Source: Escherichia phage_vB_EcoD_Punny
Direction: 5' to 3' (one strand)
Length of the DNA stretch: 49,765 bases
Sequence record: OL539444.1
Below are positions 2,250-7,793 of the stretch, one piece after another; within the stretch, counting starts at the first letter, position 1, and every line of letters begins with the position of its first letter. The translations under genes were made by a program, and so were the position numbers. The notes under the pieces were generated by a model. It did no database searches. It was not told the origin of the DNA and saw only the letters and a list, made by a program, of their open reading frames with translations.

Positions 2250-3545
2250 ATGAGCGACAAGGTAAAGGCCATTACTAAAGAAGATGGTTACAACGAAATT
2301 TTCGGATCTAAAGATGGAACGTTTAGGCCAAATGCTTTTTACATGCAAAGTGCGGCATTTAAAACGTTATCGCAATTTTATGAAGAAGATGGAATGGCGC
2401 GGCGCATTGTCGATGTTATTCCCGAAGAAATGGTAACGCCTGGTTTTAAAGTTGACGGCGTGAAAAATGAAAAGTCTTTTAAATCGCGTTGGGATGAATT
2501 GCGATTAAACGCTAAAATTATTGATGCGCTTTCATGGTCGCGTTTATTTGGCGGTTCTGCAATTCTTGCTGTTGTTTCTGATAACAGAATGCTGAAATCA
2601 CCTGTAAAGCCTGGTGCACAACTTGAAGATATTCGCGTATATGATCGCTATCAGATCACCATTCAGGAACGTGAAACTAATGCGCGGAGTGTTCGTTACG
2701 GTGAGCCAAAACTTTATAAGATCTCACCTGGCGGAGATATACCGGAATTCTTTGTTCATTACTCGCGTATTTGCATCATTGATGGTGAGCGCGTATCTAA
2801 TGAAAAACGCCGTCAAAATGATGGTTGGGGCGCAAGCATTTTAAACAAGCGTTTGATTGAGGCGATTATTGATTATAACTATTGCCAAGAATTAGCAACG
2901 CAATTGCTACGCAGAAAACAACAAGCAGTATGGAAAGCGCGTGATCTGGCTTTGATGTGCGACGATGAAGAAGGGCGCTATGCGGCGCGTTTGCGTTTGG
3001 CTCAGGTTGATGACGAAAGCGGAGTTGGTAAGGCAATTGGTATTGATGCAACCGATGAAGAATATGAGGTTCTCAATTCTGACGTTTCCGGCGTTCCAGA
3101 GTTCTTGCAGGAAAAGATTGATCGAATTGTTGCACTAACTGGCATTCATGAAATCATCCTCAAAAATAAGAACACTGGCGGCGTTTCAGCGAGTCAAAAC
3201 ACGGCGCTAGAGACTTTCTATAAGTTAATTGATCGCAAGCGCGGAGAGGATTACAAGCCGATTCTTGAATTCCTTTTGCCGTTCATGATCTCAGAAGCGG
3301 AATGGTCGATTGAATTCGAGCCGTTAAGCGTTCCGAGTGATAAGGATAAAGCTGAAATCATGGCTAAAAACGTTGAGTCAATCGTTAAGCTGAAAGCAGA
3401 GCAAGCGATCGATCTTAAAGAAACGCGAGATACTTTGCGATCAATCTGCCCTGACATTAAAATTAGTGATGGTGACAACATTGAACTACCAGATCCAGAA
3501 GAACAGGAACCGGAACCAGGAACGGAGGAATTAAACAATGAATGA
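2250..3545 (+). CDS. portal protein
   Basis: About 430 aa ORF immediately after the large terminase, acidic C-terminus; conserved synteny. ATG 2250 preferred over 2238, which lies in the terminator T-run. Confidence 0.75.
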   Translation: MSDKVKAITKEDGYNEIFGSKDGTFRPNAFYMQSAAFKTLSQFYEEDGMARRIVDVIPEEMVTPGFKVDGVKNEKSFKSRWDELRLNAKIIDALSWSRLFGGSAILAVVSDNRMLKSPVKPGAQLEDIRVYDRYQITIQERETNARSVRYGEPKLYKISPGGDIPEFFVHYSRICIIDGERVSNEKRRQNDGWGASILNKRLIEAIIDYNYCQELATQLLRRKQQAVWKARDLALMCDDEEGRYAARLRLAQVDDESGVGKAIGIDATDEEYEVLNSDVSGVPEFLQEKIDRIVALTGIHEIILKNKNTGGVSASQNTALETFYKLIDRKRGEDYKPILEFLLPFMISEAEWSIEFEPLSVPSDKDKAEIMAKNVESIVKLKAEQAIDLKETRDTLRSICPDIKISDGDNIELPDPEEQEPEPGTEELNNE

Positions 3546-4278
3546 TGTCTCATGGAGATTTCCAGAGGCAACGAGGCGCGACGTTGATCGCGCCTTACAA
3601 TTGCTTGTGAGGGATCTTGTTGTAAGAATGCGCCGTAACACAAAGCGCCTTAAATTTGATGATCAGGTTAGTGAGGCGGCGGCAGATAATGAATTATACG
3701 CAGAGGAATTAATTTCCGCATTCATCGCGCTACTGCCAACTTTCGCGCTATCCATCTATAAATTCAACTCAAAGGAATTTATCAGGATCGCAAATAAGAC
3801 AGGAGGCAAGAATAATTTAGCCGTCCTGTTGCTGATTGGTCGAGGGGCTAACGCTGGTGAATCGTGGTACGCGCCTAAATATCACGTATGGCGGCAAATG
3901 GTGCGCGACTCTATCAGAAAGATGGTTGACAATATTCTTGACGATTGGGAAATGCAAGTAAGGTTAGCCGAATTGCACGAAGCGGATCAGAAAAGATTAA
4001 ACGCAATTATCGAAAGGCGATTTAAGGTCTATAAAAATTGGGCGTCACGCCGCACTTCTGGTATAGTTGGCGCTTGGAATAGCGTGTTAATGTATCAGCG
4101 TTGTGTTGATGCTGGCGTTACCCATTATATTTGGCGCGGTCAGTTAGATGATCGCGAGCGTGAAAAACATTTGATGTGGGAAAAGAAACGGATCGCCTTA
4201 ACATCTAATCACGTTTTTCCTGGTGAGGAATTTAATTGTCGTTGTTGGGCGCAACCGGATTGGGAGACAGCAAAATGA
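3538..4278 (+). CDS. head morphogenesis / minor head protein (Mu F / SPP1 gp7-like)
   Basis: 246 aa ORF overlapping the portal stop (ATGAATGA); the position is typical for this family. Confidence 0.5.
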   Translation: MNDVSWRFPEATRRDVDRALQLLVRDLVVRMRRNTKRLKFDDQVSEAAADNELYAEELISAFIALLPTFALSIYKFNSKEFIRIANKTGGKNNLAVLLLIGRGANAGESWYAPKYHVWRQMVRDSIRKMVDNILDDWEMQVRLAELHEADQKRLNAIIERRFKVYKNWASRRTSGIVGAWNSVLMYQRCVDAGVTHYIWRGQLDDREREKHLMWEKKRIALTSNHVFPGEEFNCRCWAQPDWETAK

Positions 4279-5384
4279 AAAAGGTGCAACGTTTTGATAG
4301 CGTAAGAGTAAAGGCGCATTTTGATGAACATGGTTTTTTAGTTGATCGGCCTATTGTAGCGCGGATTGGTTTGCAGATTTACCAAACGCCATTTGGAGAG
4401 CGTAGAGAGTTCAGGCCAGCAAGCGAAGTATTCAAGGCTGATTCACTGGCAACCTATGCAGGAAAACCAATCACAGTAGGTCACGTCACCGTAACGCCGG
4501 AAAATGCGCGTAATGTCGTTGTTGGTACTTGTTCAGGCGCTGGAATCCCGAACGGGATCGGAGTTGAAGCGCCTTTGAATATTTACGCAAAGGATGCAAT
4601 TGAAAGCGCGAAGAAAAAACAAACGGCTGAAATCAGCGTTGGCTATACTTCAATTGATATTGATAAGCCAGGCTGGGGGTCTAATGAAACGGGCGAATAC
4701 ATCTTTGAAGAAGATCTAAAAGATGGTGAGAAGCCGCCGAAAGATTGGGTTAAGTTTGATGCGCTACAAACAAACATTAGCGTAAACCATATCGCGCTTG
4801 TTTTTAAAGGTCGTGCCGGAATTGCAAAATTGAATCTTGATAGCGAGCAGGAATTCCCGTATGATACTGACGTTAAACTAAATAAAGAGGACGAAGTTAT
4901 GACCGTTAAAATTAAACTTGATGGTGCTGTTGAGTTTGACGTGCCAAAAGAAGTTGCCACCTTTATCGAAACCGTAAAGGCAGATGCTGAAAAAGCCAAA
5001 ACCAAAGCCGACAGCCTGGAGGCAGAGCGTGACGCGCTACAGGCGAAAGTTGACGGCATTCCGGCGCAGATTGAAGAAGCTGTGAAAAAAGCAAAAGCTG
5101 ACGCTGATGAACATGCCGCACTGGTCGCTACCGCTTCCGAAGTTGGCGTAAAATGCGACGGCCTAACAGCCAAAGAAATTAAGATCGCATATGTGAAAGA
5201 GGTCATGGGTAATGACATTAGCGCAAAGGCTGATGCATATATTGATACCGCTTTTGATATCGCGAAAGAATCTGATAAAATGGCGGCTCAACGTATCGCA
5301 TTAAAAGGCGATGCAGCAAAAAACAAACAGGATGCAGCGGAAACCATTCTTGATCCTTCCGCACGTCTGAATAAAGCTAAGTAA
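4275..5384 (+). CDS. scaffolding / prohead core protein (putative)
   Basis: ATG 4275 overlaps the upstream stop (ATGA). C-terminal half is Ala/Lys/Glu-rich and coiled-coil-like; lies between portal and capsid genes. Confidence 0.45.
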   Translation: MKKVQRFDSVRVKAHFDEHGFLVDRPIVARIGLQIYQTPFGERREFRPASEVFKADSLATYAGKPITVGHVTVTPENARNVVVGTCSGAGIPNGIGVEAPLNIYAKDAIESAKKKQTAEISVGYTSIDIDKPGWGSNETGEYIFEEDLKDGEKPPKDWVKFDALQTNISVNHIALVFKGRAGIAKLNLDSEQEFPYDTDVKLNKEDEVMTVKIKLDGAVEFDVPKEVATFIETVKADAEKAKTKADSLEAERDALQAKVDGIPAQIEEAVKKAKADADEHAALVATASEVGVKCDGLTAKEIKIAYVKEVMGNDISAKADAYIDTAFDIAKESDKMAAQRIALKGDAAKNKQDAAETILDPSARLNKAK

Positions 5385-5396
5385 GGAGAAAATATT

Positions 5397-5876
5397 ATGG
5401 CTCAGATTTCAGCAAGTTATCATGTTGCAATGGCTCGCGCCTTGCCTGGTCAAGTTTCTGACACTTCCGCGTATAACATCGACGGCGCTTGTGTTCTTGA
5501 TGGTGATGCAGGATCAACAATTTATGTTGGCGTTGGTGTTCAACATGGCGGAGTTAGCGCAAGCGGTGAGAAATTAATTAAGGCTATGGCAGCGTCTGGT
5601 AATGCTTATGGTGTTGCTATTCGATCCAACTTCCAGACCACATCTAAAGATGGTCGCATGGTTTATGAGGCTGGTAGCGGAATTAACGTAATGACTAAAG
5701 GGCGCGTTTGGATGGTATCTGTAGAATCGGAAGCGCCAGCATTCAAAACAGCTATCAAACTTGATAATTCAGGACAGGTTGATTTAACGTCTGGATTAAT
5801 TGAAACCACTTGGATCGCAACTGGAGACTTTACGGAATTCCAAGGTCTAAAACTCGTTGAGGTTCAACTGGTATAA
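5397..5876 (+). CDS. capsid-associated protein, paralog 1 (decoration-like position)
   Basis: 159 aa; shares YNIDG, NV.TKGR.W and a similar C-terminal ...VQL end with the next ORF; occupies the slot between scaffold and major capsid. Confidence 0.35.
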   Translation: MAQISASYHVAMARALPGQVSDTSAYNIDGACVLDGDAGSTIYVGVGVQHGGVSASGEKLIKAMAASGNAYGVAIRSNFQTTSKDGRMVYEAGSGINVMTKGRVWMVSVESEAPAFKTAIKLDNSGQVDLTSGLIETTWIATGDFTEFQGLKLVEVQLV

Positions 5877-5881
5877 TAATA

Positions 5882-5905
5882 AGGCCGGATTATTCCGGCC
5901 TTTTA
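5882..5905 (+). terminator. rho-independent terminator between the two paralogs
   Basis: Stem AGGCCGGA/TCCGGCCT, loop TTAT, then TTTT. Confidence 0.6.
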
Positions 5906-5919
5906 TATATGGTGGTTTT

Positions 5920-6360
5920 ATGTCTGATTACGGTTCTATAATAGGTATAGTTGAAAATGGGTGCTTGGTAGATTCAAGCCTTTATAATATAGATGGCTCG
6001 CCAGTTATGGATGTTTCAGCCGTGATAGGTAAGGCCGTATGTGTTGATCGCATATCTTGCGGTTACAAAATAATCAGCCACAATTTTAATGAAAACTCAA
6101 ATCATTACGGAATCGTTACGCGTGATTATATGGATTTTTGCAAAGAATATTACGACGCCGGAGATCCGGTTAACGTAATAACTCATGGTCGAATTTGGGT
6201 AATCACTCAGGACGAACATGATATTCCATCGTATAAAGATCCTGTTTTTGTTAAAGACAATGGCTCTATATCAACAAGTGGATTTCCTACTAGTTGGTTT
6301 TTTACTGGCGAATACGTAAGATATTCACACGGATATATTTTACTATCAGTTCAGTTGTAG
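5920..6360 (+). CDS. capsid-associated protein, paralog 2
   Basis: ATG 5920 after the terminator; paralog of 5397-5876 (YNIDG, VNVITHGRIWV, C-terminal SVQL). Confidence 0.35.
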   Translation: MSDYGSIIGIVENGCLVDSSLYNIDGSPVMDVSAVIGKAVCVDRISCGYKIISHNFNENSNHYGIVTRDYMDFCKEYYDAGDPVNVITHGRIWVITQDEHDIPSYKDPVFVKDNGSISTSGFPTSWFFTGEYVRYSHGYILLSVQL

Positions 6361-6380
6361 CGTGCTAACACAAAAAACAC

Positions 6381-6409
6381 TTGAACGTTTAACAAAAAAT
6401 GCTATATTA
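6381..6409 (+). promoter_or_regulatory. sigma70-like promoter upstream of major capsid gene
   Basis: TTGAAC, 17-bp spacer, TATATT; followed by hairpin AAGCCGT/ACGGCTT at 6410-6430. Confidence 0.45.
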
Positions 6410-6449
6410 AAGCCGTTATTGTGACGGCTTTTCTATGAGGGGAAATATT

Positions 6450-7427
6450 ATGTCTAAAGAAAAAATTAAATTTGATGAATTTGAAGCGTCTGTGATTTCT
6501 AATCACCTGCAACTGCAAGGCGCTAAAAACGATGCGTCTGATATGGGGATTTGGACGGCTCAAGAGCTACACAAAATTAAGTCTCAGGCTTATGAGAAAG
6601 AATATCCGGCAGGTTCCGCACTGCGTGTATTCCCTGTAACGTCCGAGCTTTCCGATACTGACAAAACTTTTGAATACCAGACTTTCGACAAAGTAGGTCA
6701 CGCAAAAATCATCGCTGATTATACTGATGATCTGCCAACTGTTGACGCGATGATGACTTCTGAATTTGGTAAAGTGTTCCGCCTGGGTAATGCGTTCCTG
6801 ATTTCCATTGACGAAATCAAAGCAGGTCAACGCACTGGCAAGAGCCTTTCCACTCGCAAGGCAAACGCCGCACAGAATGCGCATGATCAGCTTGTCAATC
6901 ACCTGGTTTTCAAAGGCTCTAAGCCGCACAAAATTATCAGTGTGTTTGAACATCCGAACATCACAACTATCAACTCCGCAGGTTGGAACAACGCCGCAGG
7001 TACTGGTAAAAAGCCGAAAACAGCACAGGATGAATTAGAGCAAGCGATTGAAAAAATCGAAACGCTGACCAACGGGCAGCACCGCGCTACTCACATTCTG
7101 ATCCCGCCGTCAATGCGTAAGGTTTTGAGCGTTCGTATGCCGGAAACCACCATGAGCTATCTTGATTACTTCAAGCAGCAGAATGGAGGTATCACTATCG
7201 AATCCATTTCCGAGCTTGAAGATATCGACGGCGCAGGGACTAAAGCGGCGCTGGTTTACGAAAAAGATCCGATGAACATGAGCATTGAGATTCCAGAAGC
7301 GTTTAACATGCTGACCGCGCAACCTAAAGACCTGCATTTCAAAGTGCCTTGCACCTCTAAATGTACTGGCCTGACGATTTACCGTCCGTTGACGCTGGTT
7401 CTGATTAAAGGTCTTGTAGTAGGCTGA
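6450..7427 (+). CDS. major capsid protein
   Basis: About 325 aa ORF with GAGGGG RBS, own promoter and strong terminator immediately downstream; position after scaffold. Confidence 0.6.
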   Translation: MSKEKIKFDEFEASVISNHLQLQGAKNDASDMGIWTAQELHKIKSQAYEKEYPAGSALRVFPVTSELSDTDKTFEYQTFDKVGHAKIIADYTDDLPTVDAMMTSEFGKVFRLGNAFLISIDEIKAGQRTGKSLSTRKANAAQNAHDQLVNHLVFKGSKPHKIISVFEHPNITTINSAGWNNAAGTGKKPKTAQDELEQAIEKIETLTNGQHRATHILIPPSMRKVLSVRMPETTMSYLDYFKQQNGGITIESISELEDIDGAGTKAALVYEKDPMNMSIEIPEAFNMLTAQPKDLHFKVPCTSKCTGLTIYRPLTLVLIKGLVVG

Positions 7428-7443
7428 TAATTCAATTAATATA

Positions 7444-7470
7444 GGGAACCGTTAAAAGGTTCCCTTTTTT
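7444..7470 (+). terminator. rho-independent terminator
   Basis: Stem GGGAACC/GGTTCCC, 7-nt loop, then TTTTTT. Confidence 0.75.
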
Positions 7471-7488: not shown

Positions 7489-7761
7489 ATGGCTAAAGAA
7501 AAAGAAATTACACTGGTTAACACTGGCGTTGCACTGATTATTATTGATCGCGTTGACGTTATGCCAGGTAAAGAAATTACCGTTGCGGAAAGCGTGTTAG
7601 AGCGGCAAGGCACTAAAGCACTTATGGCAGAAGGTAAGCTAACAATCAAAGATAACAGCGATCTCAATGCTGAAATCGTTGAAGCGTTTAAGAGCAAGCG
7701 CAAAAAAGATCCGAACGAAGGCAAGACAAAAAAAGAGCTTGAGGACGGCGGCGAGTATTAA
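7489..7761 (+). CDS. hypothetical protein, monocistronic between two terminators
   Basis: 90 aa ORF with basic C-terminus, flanked by terminators at 7444-7470 and 7769-7793. Confidence 0.5.
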   Translation: MAKEKEITLVNTGVALIIIDRVDVMPGKEITVAESVLERQGTKALMAEGKLTIKDNSDLNAEIVEAFKSKRKKDPNEGKTKKELEDGGEY

Positions 7762-7768
7762 TTAATAA

Positions 7769-7793
7769 AGGCGCTTATTTAGCGCCTTTTTTA
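7769..7793 (+). terminator. rho-independent terminator
   Basis: Stem AGGCGCT/AGCGCCT, loop TATTT, then TTTTTT. Confidence 0.7.

Follow-up and report, generated by a model that had tools for sequence, protein, structure and literature searches.

A T1-type pair of capsid cement genes around a conserved terminator-like hairpin in Escherichia phage vB_EcoD_Punny

Introduction

Why would a phage keep two related genes between its scaffold and capsid genes, in a slot where lambda carries one, and why would a terminator stand between them? The question is raised by Escherichia phage vB_EcoD_Punny (sequence record OL539444.1), of which we analyzed a stretch of 49,765 nucleotides, referred to below as the window. 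Two open reading frames on its + strand, ORF1 (5397-5876, 159 amino acids) and ORF2 (5920-6360, 146 amino acids), lie between a head maturation protease/scaffold gene and the gene for the major capsid protein. An earlier, sequence-only reading of this DNA had described the two as paralogs occupying the slot of a decoration protein, and had proposed that an intrinsic terminator between them would lower expression of the second copy.

By nucleotide identity the window belongs to a Tls-like phage of the Drexlerviridae: across 4236-7427 it matches Citrobacter phage vB_CfrD_ZerotoHero and two sister isolates at 100% identity, and Tls, Stevie, Sazh, phSE-2 and other Tlsvirus members (Drexlerviridae, Tempevirinae) at 94-97%. 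The main facts about such a pair are already known from phage T1, and the sequence itself is already deposited. What is new here is modest, namely a minor copy without an immunoglobulin-like (Ig) domain, a family-wide layout of terminator and promoter, and the exchange of the pair as a cassette. The structural precedent in T1, the capsid gene's own conserved promoter and the standing of ORF2 as an Ig-less minor subunit go beyond the earlier reading.

Results

Two paralogous cement proteins

Both genes are present where the sequence-only reading had placed them, and BLASTP aligns their products with 31% identity and 54% positives over 143 columns (E 2e-19). This similarity is far beyond chance and marks ORF1 and ORF2 as paralogs; the kinship proposed earlier thus withstands formal pairwise alignment. 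The likenesses from which it had been read are also borne out, with YNIDG near both N-termini (AYNIDGAC in ORF1, LYNIDGSP in ORF2), the block (I/V)NV.T(K/H)GR(V/I)W in both proteins (INVMTKGRVW and VNVITHGRIW, respectively) and similar C-termini (LVEVQLV and LLSVQL).

Family membership was assigned when the whole-protein hidden Markov model score exceeded the curated Pfam gathering threshold, 27 bits. Both proteins pass the thresholds of Phage_cement (PF22758) and XM1_gp53_minor_capsid (PF23982), ORF1 scoring best on the first (84.9 bits, E 7.7e-24, and 57.3 bits on the second) and ORF2 on the second (89.4 bits, E 2.8e-25, residues 1-142, and 52.2 bits on the first); both are also assigned to phrog_1989. 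Phmmer searches of the Protein Data Bank (PDB) align ORF1 over residues 1-158 with residues 1-155 of a 158-residue T1/FCWL1 cement chain (9kzj/9kmg; E 8.6e-44; 50% identity to T1 gp49), and ORF2 over residues 14-141 with residues 14-139 of the 255-residue T1 gp48/FCWL1 gp29 (E 2.8e-13; approximately 30% identity to gp48).

An AlphaFold (AF2) model of ORF2, computed from an alignment of 130 homologs, reached a predicted local distance difference test score (pLDDT) of 76.7 and a predicted template modeling score (pTM) of 0.75; it replaced a model from an 11-sequence alignment that was unusable (pLDDT 41.8). Its best solved matches in Foldseek are the T1 and FCWL1 cement chains (template modeling (TM) score 0.75-0.79, with 9kzj_H at 0.75; root-mean-square deviation 2.7-2.9 Å), so that the structure prediction, too, agrees with the earlier reading. 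The next matches are decoration proteins of XM1, Pam3, Sf11, Borrelia phage BB1, the phi29 head-fibre base, E217 and TW1. Among these phages, E217 gp24 and Pam3 gp6 (PF22758) and XM1 gp53 (PF23982) share a family with both ORFs, and capsid chains of XM1, Pam3 and E217 are among the matches of the ORF2 model. For the cement-protein (beta-tulip) fold, the test is thus made on the predicted ORF2 model, and ORF1 is placed by its full-length sequence match to gp49. Taken together, sequence and predicted fold identify ORF1 and ORF2 as capsid cement (decoration) proteins, and the pair as the Tls-group counterpart of T1 gp49/gp48.

The decoration-protein slot of the earlier reading holds as well: both ORFs lie between the protease/scaffold and major capsid genes, where lambda has gpD, and their identification as cement comes from Pfam and from the T1/FCWL1 chains. 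Lambda gpD and TW1 gp56 are encoded in the same slot and form trimers at the three-fold sites of a T=7 capsid, and the T1 authors describe the beta-tulip fold of their cement proteins as analogous (PMC11945409). A Pfam scan gave no match of either ORF to the gpD family at E up to 0.1; gpD is outside the top 50 Foldseek matches of the ORF2 model, and TW1 gp56 is a weak match (TM 0.54, E 0.24). Lambda, moreover, has a single gene and forms homotrimers only, whereas the window has two paralogs, and gpD-type proteins remain on the outer surface, whereas the N-terminal arm of gp49 inserts into the shell (PMC11945409).

The structural precedent in T1

Cryo-electron microscopy of T1 shows a T=7 capsid built from 415 capsid protein subunits (PMC11945409). 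Its cement comprises 80 homotrimers of gp49 and 60 heterotrimers, each with one gp48 and two gp49, amounting to 360 gp49 and 60 gp48; the N-terminal arm of gp49 is buried in the inner face of the shell, beneath the A-domains of two capsid subunits, and gp48 is attached to the surface only, with its C-terminal Ig-like domain protruding (PMC11945409). The T1 authors proposed that this domain aids adsorption (PMC11945409).

The window agrees with the T1 pair (PDB 9KZJ) and the FCWL1 pair (9KMG/9KMH) in the order protease/scaffold, major cement, terminator, minor paralog, capsid gene, and with the T1 pair in the predicted fold of ORF2; its capsid protein is 76% identical to T1 gp47. The two systems differ in that gp48 has 255 residues and a C-terminal Big_2 Ig-like domain, whereas ORF2 ends after the cement domain.

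According to the legend of Figure 2A of the T1 study, each hexon has four homotrimers and two heterotrimers (PMC11945409). Around each hexon of a T=7 lattice, two trimer sites adjoin a penton, three are general sites between hexons only and one sits on an icosahedral three-fold axis. By this geometry, only the penton-adjacent class would account for both counts, two heterotrimers around a hexon and 60 in the whole capsid. The FCWL1 portal vertex (PDB 9kmh), which contains five gp29 chains, is consistent with such a vertex-adjacent placement.

A conserved hairpin between the two genes

On the + strand between ORF1 and ORF2, a consensus scan, folding and a conserved position point to an intrinsic terminator-like hairpin with a T-rich tail at 5881-5912. 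The earlier reading had given the terminator as 5882-5905; the site is indeed present, with its stem at 5881-5902 and the T-rich tail following. The hairpin has a 9-bp stem with six G-C pairs, a 4-nt loop and the tail TTATATATGG; the tail reads UUAUAUAUGG, or UUUUAUAUAU if the two closing A-U pairs are counted into it. Its minimum free energy (MFE) is -17.6 kcal/mol (z = -3.65), and none of 200 shuffled sequences was as stable. The element has the structure of an intrinsic terminator, in that a G+C-rich stem-loop precedes a U-rich tract on the coding strand of an intergenic interval.

For comparison, 17 Drexlerviridae besides the window were analyzed together. A hairpin followed by a T-run comes after the first cement gene in 16 of 16 loci, and the spacers of two-copy loci fold at -14 to -21 kcal/mol. 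The stems themselves are unrelated across genera, with at least six unrelated stem sequences, and between T1 and Sip the stem carries a compensatory change from T:A to C:G. The same hairpin is recorded as a terminator in the annotations of T1, Stevie, Sip and AHS24.

The minor gene between terminator and capsid promoter

Two copies are found in 13 loci, those of the window, Tls, Stevie, T1, CLB_P3, phi2457T, ElisaCorrea, damhaus, P-K7R, SG01, Sip, JLBYU07 and EC195. All 13 share one order: protease/scaffold gene, cement gene of the ORF1 kind (A-type), short spacer, paralog of the ORF2 kind (B-type), spacer of approximately 80-90 nt and capsid gene. ADB-2 has this order as well. The A-type proteins of the two-copy loci are 157-170 residues long and 49-99% identical to ORF1; with the first cement gene product of 12 relatives, ORF1 shares 50-71% identity. 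Copy number in related phages, which the sequence-only reading had proposed as a check, thus supports a pair, although Klebsiella phage NJS1 (Webervirus) and Erwinia phage Snitter carry only the A-type gene, with its terminator followed directly by the capsid promoter. These counts were taken from individual loci; the number of tblastn "places" per record is unsuitable for the purpose, because the weaker paralog drops below the E-value limit in a large database.

Upstream of the capsid gene, at 6381-6408 on the + strand, consensus scanning and conservation point to a sigma-70-type promoter-like element with an extended -10 (TTGAAC-16-TGcTATATT). Its A-run, the TTG of the -35, the TTAAC.A of the spacer and TG.TAT..T do not vary among 12 phages of several genera, whose capsid proteins are down to 54% identical. 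The motif has no second copy elsewhere in the window, and so gives no sign of a phage-wide late promoter. The spacer at 6387-6402 (GTTTAACAAAAAATGC) is almost invariant across genera, which exceeds what a sigma-70 spacer needs, and may be a candidate regulator binding site. A consensus scan of 5397-5920 found no promoter-like site on the + strand. With a terminator after the first paralog and a capsid promoter after the second, ORF2 therefore sits between the terminator and the next promoter.

The two genes also differ in their Shine-Dalgarno (SD) sequences. ORF1 has a strong SD, AAGGAG, upstream, and ORF2 a weak one, GGTGG (5911-5915, + strand); the energies of the anti-SD duplexes are -9.2 kcal/mol for ORF1, -5.6 kcal/mol for ORF2 and -8.5 kcal/mol for the capsid gene. 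In the nine loci where both could be scored, the SD of the second paralog is the weaker in seven.

A minor paralog without an Ig-like domain

A Pfam scan of ORF2 gave no match to Big_2 at E up to 0.1, and the cement domain fills residues 1-142 of 146. The capsid gene starts only 89 nt after the ORF2 stop, which leaves no room for a frameshift extension of ORF2. The minor paralog bears one Big_2 domain in T1 gp48 and JLBYU07, two in Sip, and in ElisaCorrea a C-terminal extension of approximately 115 residues that Pfam does not recognize; the versions of the window, Tls, Stevie, damhaus (144 residues), P-K7R (168) and SG01 (171) have no recognized extra domain, the last three at 30-39% identity.

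An exhaustive phmmer search found 41 relatives of ORF2 at E up to 1e-3 among 1.84 billion representatives; a word-indexed homolog search had returned nine clusters only, and the exhaustive search was needed to reveal the family. Many of these relatives begin with the B-type signature M(S/A)DYG, and they fall into three length groups (138-179, 239-279 and 336-346 residues). Of 40 examined, 7 have a recognizable Big_2; a collagen repeat, a cadherin-like domain and invasin D4 turn up once each. Judging from these sequences, the minor subunit appears to act as a platform on which an outer domain is optional and variable, and the window would have the bare form. Without an Ig domain, ORF2 cannot have the adhesion role proposed for gp48, nor can that role explain its retention; a structural role at vertex-adjacent trimers would be the most economical reading.

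ORF2 has the lowest G+C content among the neighboring genes (37.0%; ORF1 has 44.6% and the whole window 42.8%). The G+C fraction at third codon positions (GC3) is similar in the two (0.30 for ORF2, 0.32 for ORF1), indicating that the low value comes from amino-acid composition and not from codon choice; a foreign origin of ORF2, which the low G+C had brought to mind, was rejected as unsupported. ORF2 differs from its Tls and Stevie counterparts by just 2-3 nucleotides, and the ratio of nonsynonymous to synonymous substitution rates (dN/dS) is uninformative.

Existing annotations of the family are of uneven quality. Tls HdeC (hdeC, 4697-5137 in locus L001, 146 residues) is labelled an IgG-domain-containing decoration protein, a label that is unsupported because the protein has no Ig domain, and homologs of ORF1 and ORF2 are mislabelled as zonula occludens toxin, scaffolding protein, SbcC-like, peptidase or N-acetylmuramoyl-L-alanine amidase. 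In Escherichia phage AHS24 (Rogunavirus; 3063-3948 in locus L009), there is no B-type paralog between the cement-gene terminator and the capsid promoter; the slot holds a 150-residue ORF that carries a collagen triple-helix repeat and is mislabelled as a DNA polymerase, and, overlapping it, a 148-residue ORF without a Pfam match; this may be a different, fibre-like decoration.

Exchange of the pair as a cassette

The window and ElisaCorrea, also a Tlsvirus, are 97-100% identical over approximately 3000-5296 and from 6380 to approximately 8100, with capsid proteins 99.7% identical, and diverge strongly over 5297-6379. The divergent stretch takes in the final ~90 nt of the scaffold gene, the part of ORF1 that begins at codon 26, the terminator and ORF2, and its right junction abuts the -35 of the capsid promoter. 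Within it lies an island without a single difference (5393-5470) that contains the first 25 codons of ORF1. In this one comparison, the pattern of divergence therefore indicates that the ORF1 body, the terminator and ORF2 were exchanged as one cassette. Retention of the ORF1 N-terminal arm together with the capsid gene fits the expectation for an arm in contact with the capsid protein and an ORF1 body in contact with ORF2.

The N-terminus of the A-type proteins, MAxIxASY..ALPG, is conserved and four residues longer than that of the B-type. In a neighbor-joining tree, A-types from two-copy loci cluster with the single-copy proteins of NJS1 and Snitter, the B-types form long branches in two groups, and the AHS24 A-type lies beside the T1-group B-types on a long branch. 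The tree is crude; it fits an old duplication in which the minor copy evolves faster.

Neighboring genes and other elements of the locus

At the left end of the window, the order is small terminase, large terminase, portal, Mu-F-like head morphogenesis protein and DUF2213 protease/scaffold, followed by ORF1, ORF2, major capsid protein, DUF7444, DUF4054 connector and tail genes. The protease/scaffold gene (4274-5384, + strand; Pfam DUF2213, phrog_530) starts as annotated in Tls and Stevie, and the ATG of ORF2 at 5920 is likewise the start annotated in those phages. The capsid gene (6450-7427, + strand) matches PF09950 (E 1.6e-55) and phrog_264; its longest ORF begins at an ATG at 6435, but the better ribosome-binding site (RBS; GAGGGG, 8-nt spacing) serves the ATG at 6450, the start annotated in relatives. 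A terminator-like hairpin found by the scan at 7443-7465 (+ strand), annotated in Stevie and T1, closes the capsid gene unit. Together with another at 7767-7789, it forms a pair of strong terminator-like hairpins on both sides of the DUF7444 gene (7489-7761, 90 residues), and T1 gp46 is bracketed in the same way. An Rfam scan of the whole window returned no matches.

A second hairpin with a T-run lies right after the -10 of the capsid promoter (6409-6431, + strand; MFE -11.6 kcal/mol, z -3.49). It is found at the same offset in 13 of 13 two-copy loci, with a gap of 1-3 nt, and is annotated as a terminator in Sip; the spacing from promoter to hairpin is likewise kept in T1, SG01, Sip and others. 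This hairpin may be a terminator of read-through transcripts, or a 5' stem-loop of the capsid mRNA. The expected start of the capsid transcript, ~7 nt past the -10 and near 6415, falls inside the 5' arm, so transcripts born at the promoter would lack that arm, and read-through from upstream would carry the whole hairpin and could terminate. Promoter-coupled terminators, in which termination occurs ~10 bp upstream of the start site (bioRxiv 10.64898/2026.08.19.745784), were considered for 6409-6431 and rejected, as the hairpin here is downstream of the -10, the reverse order.

Another promoter-like site, TTGATA-16-TAAAAT with a TG extension, lies at 5254-5281 (+ strand; 10 of 12 consensus matches), inside the 3' end of the scaffold gene and ~145 nt before ORF1. 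A comparable site is found at the same place in 10 of 13 loci, and it may be a dedicated ORF1 promoter, although this conservation is ambiguous because the site is coding and the protein could explain it. In T1, the -10-like hexamer at this site, TATCAT, is kept despite a change of the encoded residue from K to I.

Discussion

A proposed role for gene layout

What, then, are the two genes for? We judge it probable that the two form a T1-type two-component cement, with ORF1 as its major and ORF2 as its minor subunit, that they join in 1:2 heterotrimers, and that their ratio is fitted by gene layout. By homology to T1, ORF1 trimers would occupy the three-fold and quasi-three-fold sites of a T=7 capsid of the HK97 fold, with the conserved N-terminal arm of ORF1 tucked beneath the A-domains of the capsid protein. 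ORF2 would enter the virion in one of the three places of each of the 60 trimers that adjoin vertices, with ORF1 in the other two, and the resulting demand for ORF1 over ORF2, approximately 6:1, would be matched by the order of genes and signals. ORF1, with its strong ribosome-binding site, is followed by the intrinsic terminator; ORF2, lacking a promoter of its own and having a weaker RBS, would be transcribed by read-through only; and the downstream capsid gene would be driven from its own conserved promoter. That ORF2 is probably made in smaller amounts than ORF1, as the sequence-only reading had expected from the terminator, draws support from the 360:60 ratio of the T1 homologs, from the T1 terminator in the same place, and from the missing promoter and weaker SD of ORF2.

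Several points weigh against this proposal. The U-tract after the hairpin is short (UUUU, then AUAUAU), and the late regions of the window and of T1 are rich in terminators, some of them ahead of genes without an obvious need for down-regulation; with so many about, the hairpin at 5881-5912 taken alone is weak, non-specific evidence for dosage control. All promoter calls are consensus matches. ORF2 is only some 30% identical to gp48 and lacks the domain behind the proposed function of gp48, and the vertex-adjacent position of the T1 heterotrimers is our own deduction from lattice geometry, absent from PMC11945409. Finally, we found no expression, proteomic or structural data on Tls-like phages in the literature, nor any literature on the gene names HtjA/HdeC, on further Drexlerviridae capsid structures or on transcript maps.

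Other explanations of the locus

The hairpin might be no dosage device at all. It could serve the 3' end or stability of an abundant ORF1 transcript, or be an ordinary leaky late terminator, with the level of ORF2 set by translation or assembly and surplus ORF2 subunits simply left unincorporated. Terminator-like hairpins do follow terL and the capsid, DUF7444 and tail tube genes, among others, in the window and T1, the weaker SD of ORF2 in most loci could suffice by itself, and the promoter-like site at 5254-5281 would yield a short promoter-ORF1-terminator unit. A 3'-end role is nonetheless compatible with a dosage role, as any termination at 5881-5912 lowers transcription of ORF2 when no later promoter intervenes, and the position of the second paralog, exactly between terminator and capsid promoter in all 13 two-copy loci, is a prediction of dosage control. 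We regard an explanation without dosage control as unlikely.

A different arrangement in the particle would have ORF2 form homotrimers of its own at a distinct subset of sites, for instance the 20 icosahedral three-fold axes, where 60 copies would likewise fit. The 28-31% identity of ORF2 to ORF1 and gp48 and the fast evolution of the B-type would permit an oligomeric behavior unlike that in T1, but the T1 minor paralog is seen in heterotrimers only, and the joint replacement of ORF1 from codon 26 and ORF2 relative to ElisaCorrea is what an interacting pair predicts, so that we hold separate ORF2 homotrimers to be highly improbable. Least probable of the explanations considered is that ORF2 is what remains of a decoration gene that once bore an Ig domain and is now in decay, with poor expression and no place left in particles. 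Its lack of the Ig domain found in T1, Sip and JLBYU07, its low G+C and weak SD, and its place behind a terminator would all suit such a remnant; yet ORF2 is an unbroken frame kept at 95% identity or more in 43 deposited phages, versions without a recognized extra domain persist in other genera and among metagenomic representatives, the invariant motifs of the family are kept, the model confidently folds like the T1 cement proteins, and a GC3 close to that of ORF1 ascribes the low G+C to amino-acid content.

A wider reading of the minor subunit, and related systems

The proposal of a dosed, two-component cement can be carried one step further, to a more tentative reading that is possible but that we do not favor over its denial. 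The core job of gp48-type proteins would be structural and not adhesive: the minor subunit would be a vertex-adaptor that closes the cement lattice around the pentons and portal, dosed by gene layout and serving as an exchangeable display platform. Under this reading, and sharing its tentative standing as a whole, the ORF2 share of about one in seven (60 of 420 cement subunits) would be fixed by the placement of terminator and promoter; the outer part could be absent, or consist of one Ig domain, two Ig domains, a collagen repeat, a cadherin-like domain or unrecognized C-terminal domains; and the minor subunit would be swapped with the ORF1 body as the cassette 5297-6379, with the ORF1 arm and the capsid gene remaining fixed.

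As an analogy of mechanism only, the herpesvirus triplex (one Tri1 and two Tri2) likewise uses a 1:2 heterotrimer to clamp capsomers together at quasi-three-fold sites. All herpesvirus triplexes are heterotrimeric and essential for assembly, whereas in the present case, if T1 is a guide, mixed trimers would make up only 60 of the 140. A related fold of the herpesvirus triplex was cited by the T1 authors (PMC11945409). The locus also resembles phage late operons in which leaky intrinsic terminators set dosage, in having a G+C-rich hairpin and U-run between co-oriented genes and a downstream gene without a promoter; it would differ in the downstream promoter that, as its conservation suggests, restores transcription for the next abundant gene.

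Significance

For annotation, the analysis corrects database labels: scaffolding protein, zonula occludens toxin, SbcC-like, peptidase and IgG-domain-containing fit neither protein. It is also relevant to capsid engineering and to display on T1-like phages, several of which are in therapy collections. As a natural variant without an Ig domain, ORF2 allows the structural part played by the minor cement subunit to be told apart from the adhesion proposed for T1 gp48, and the succession of terminator, minor gene and promoter offers a simple example of how gene layout might set the ratio of two related capsid subunits.

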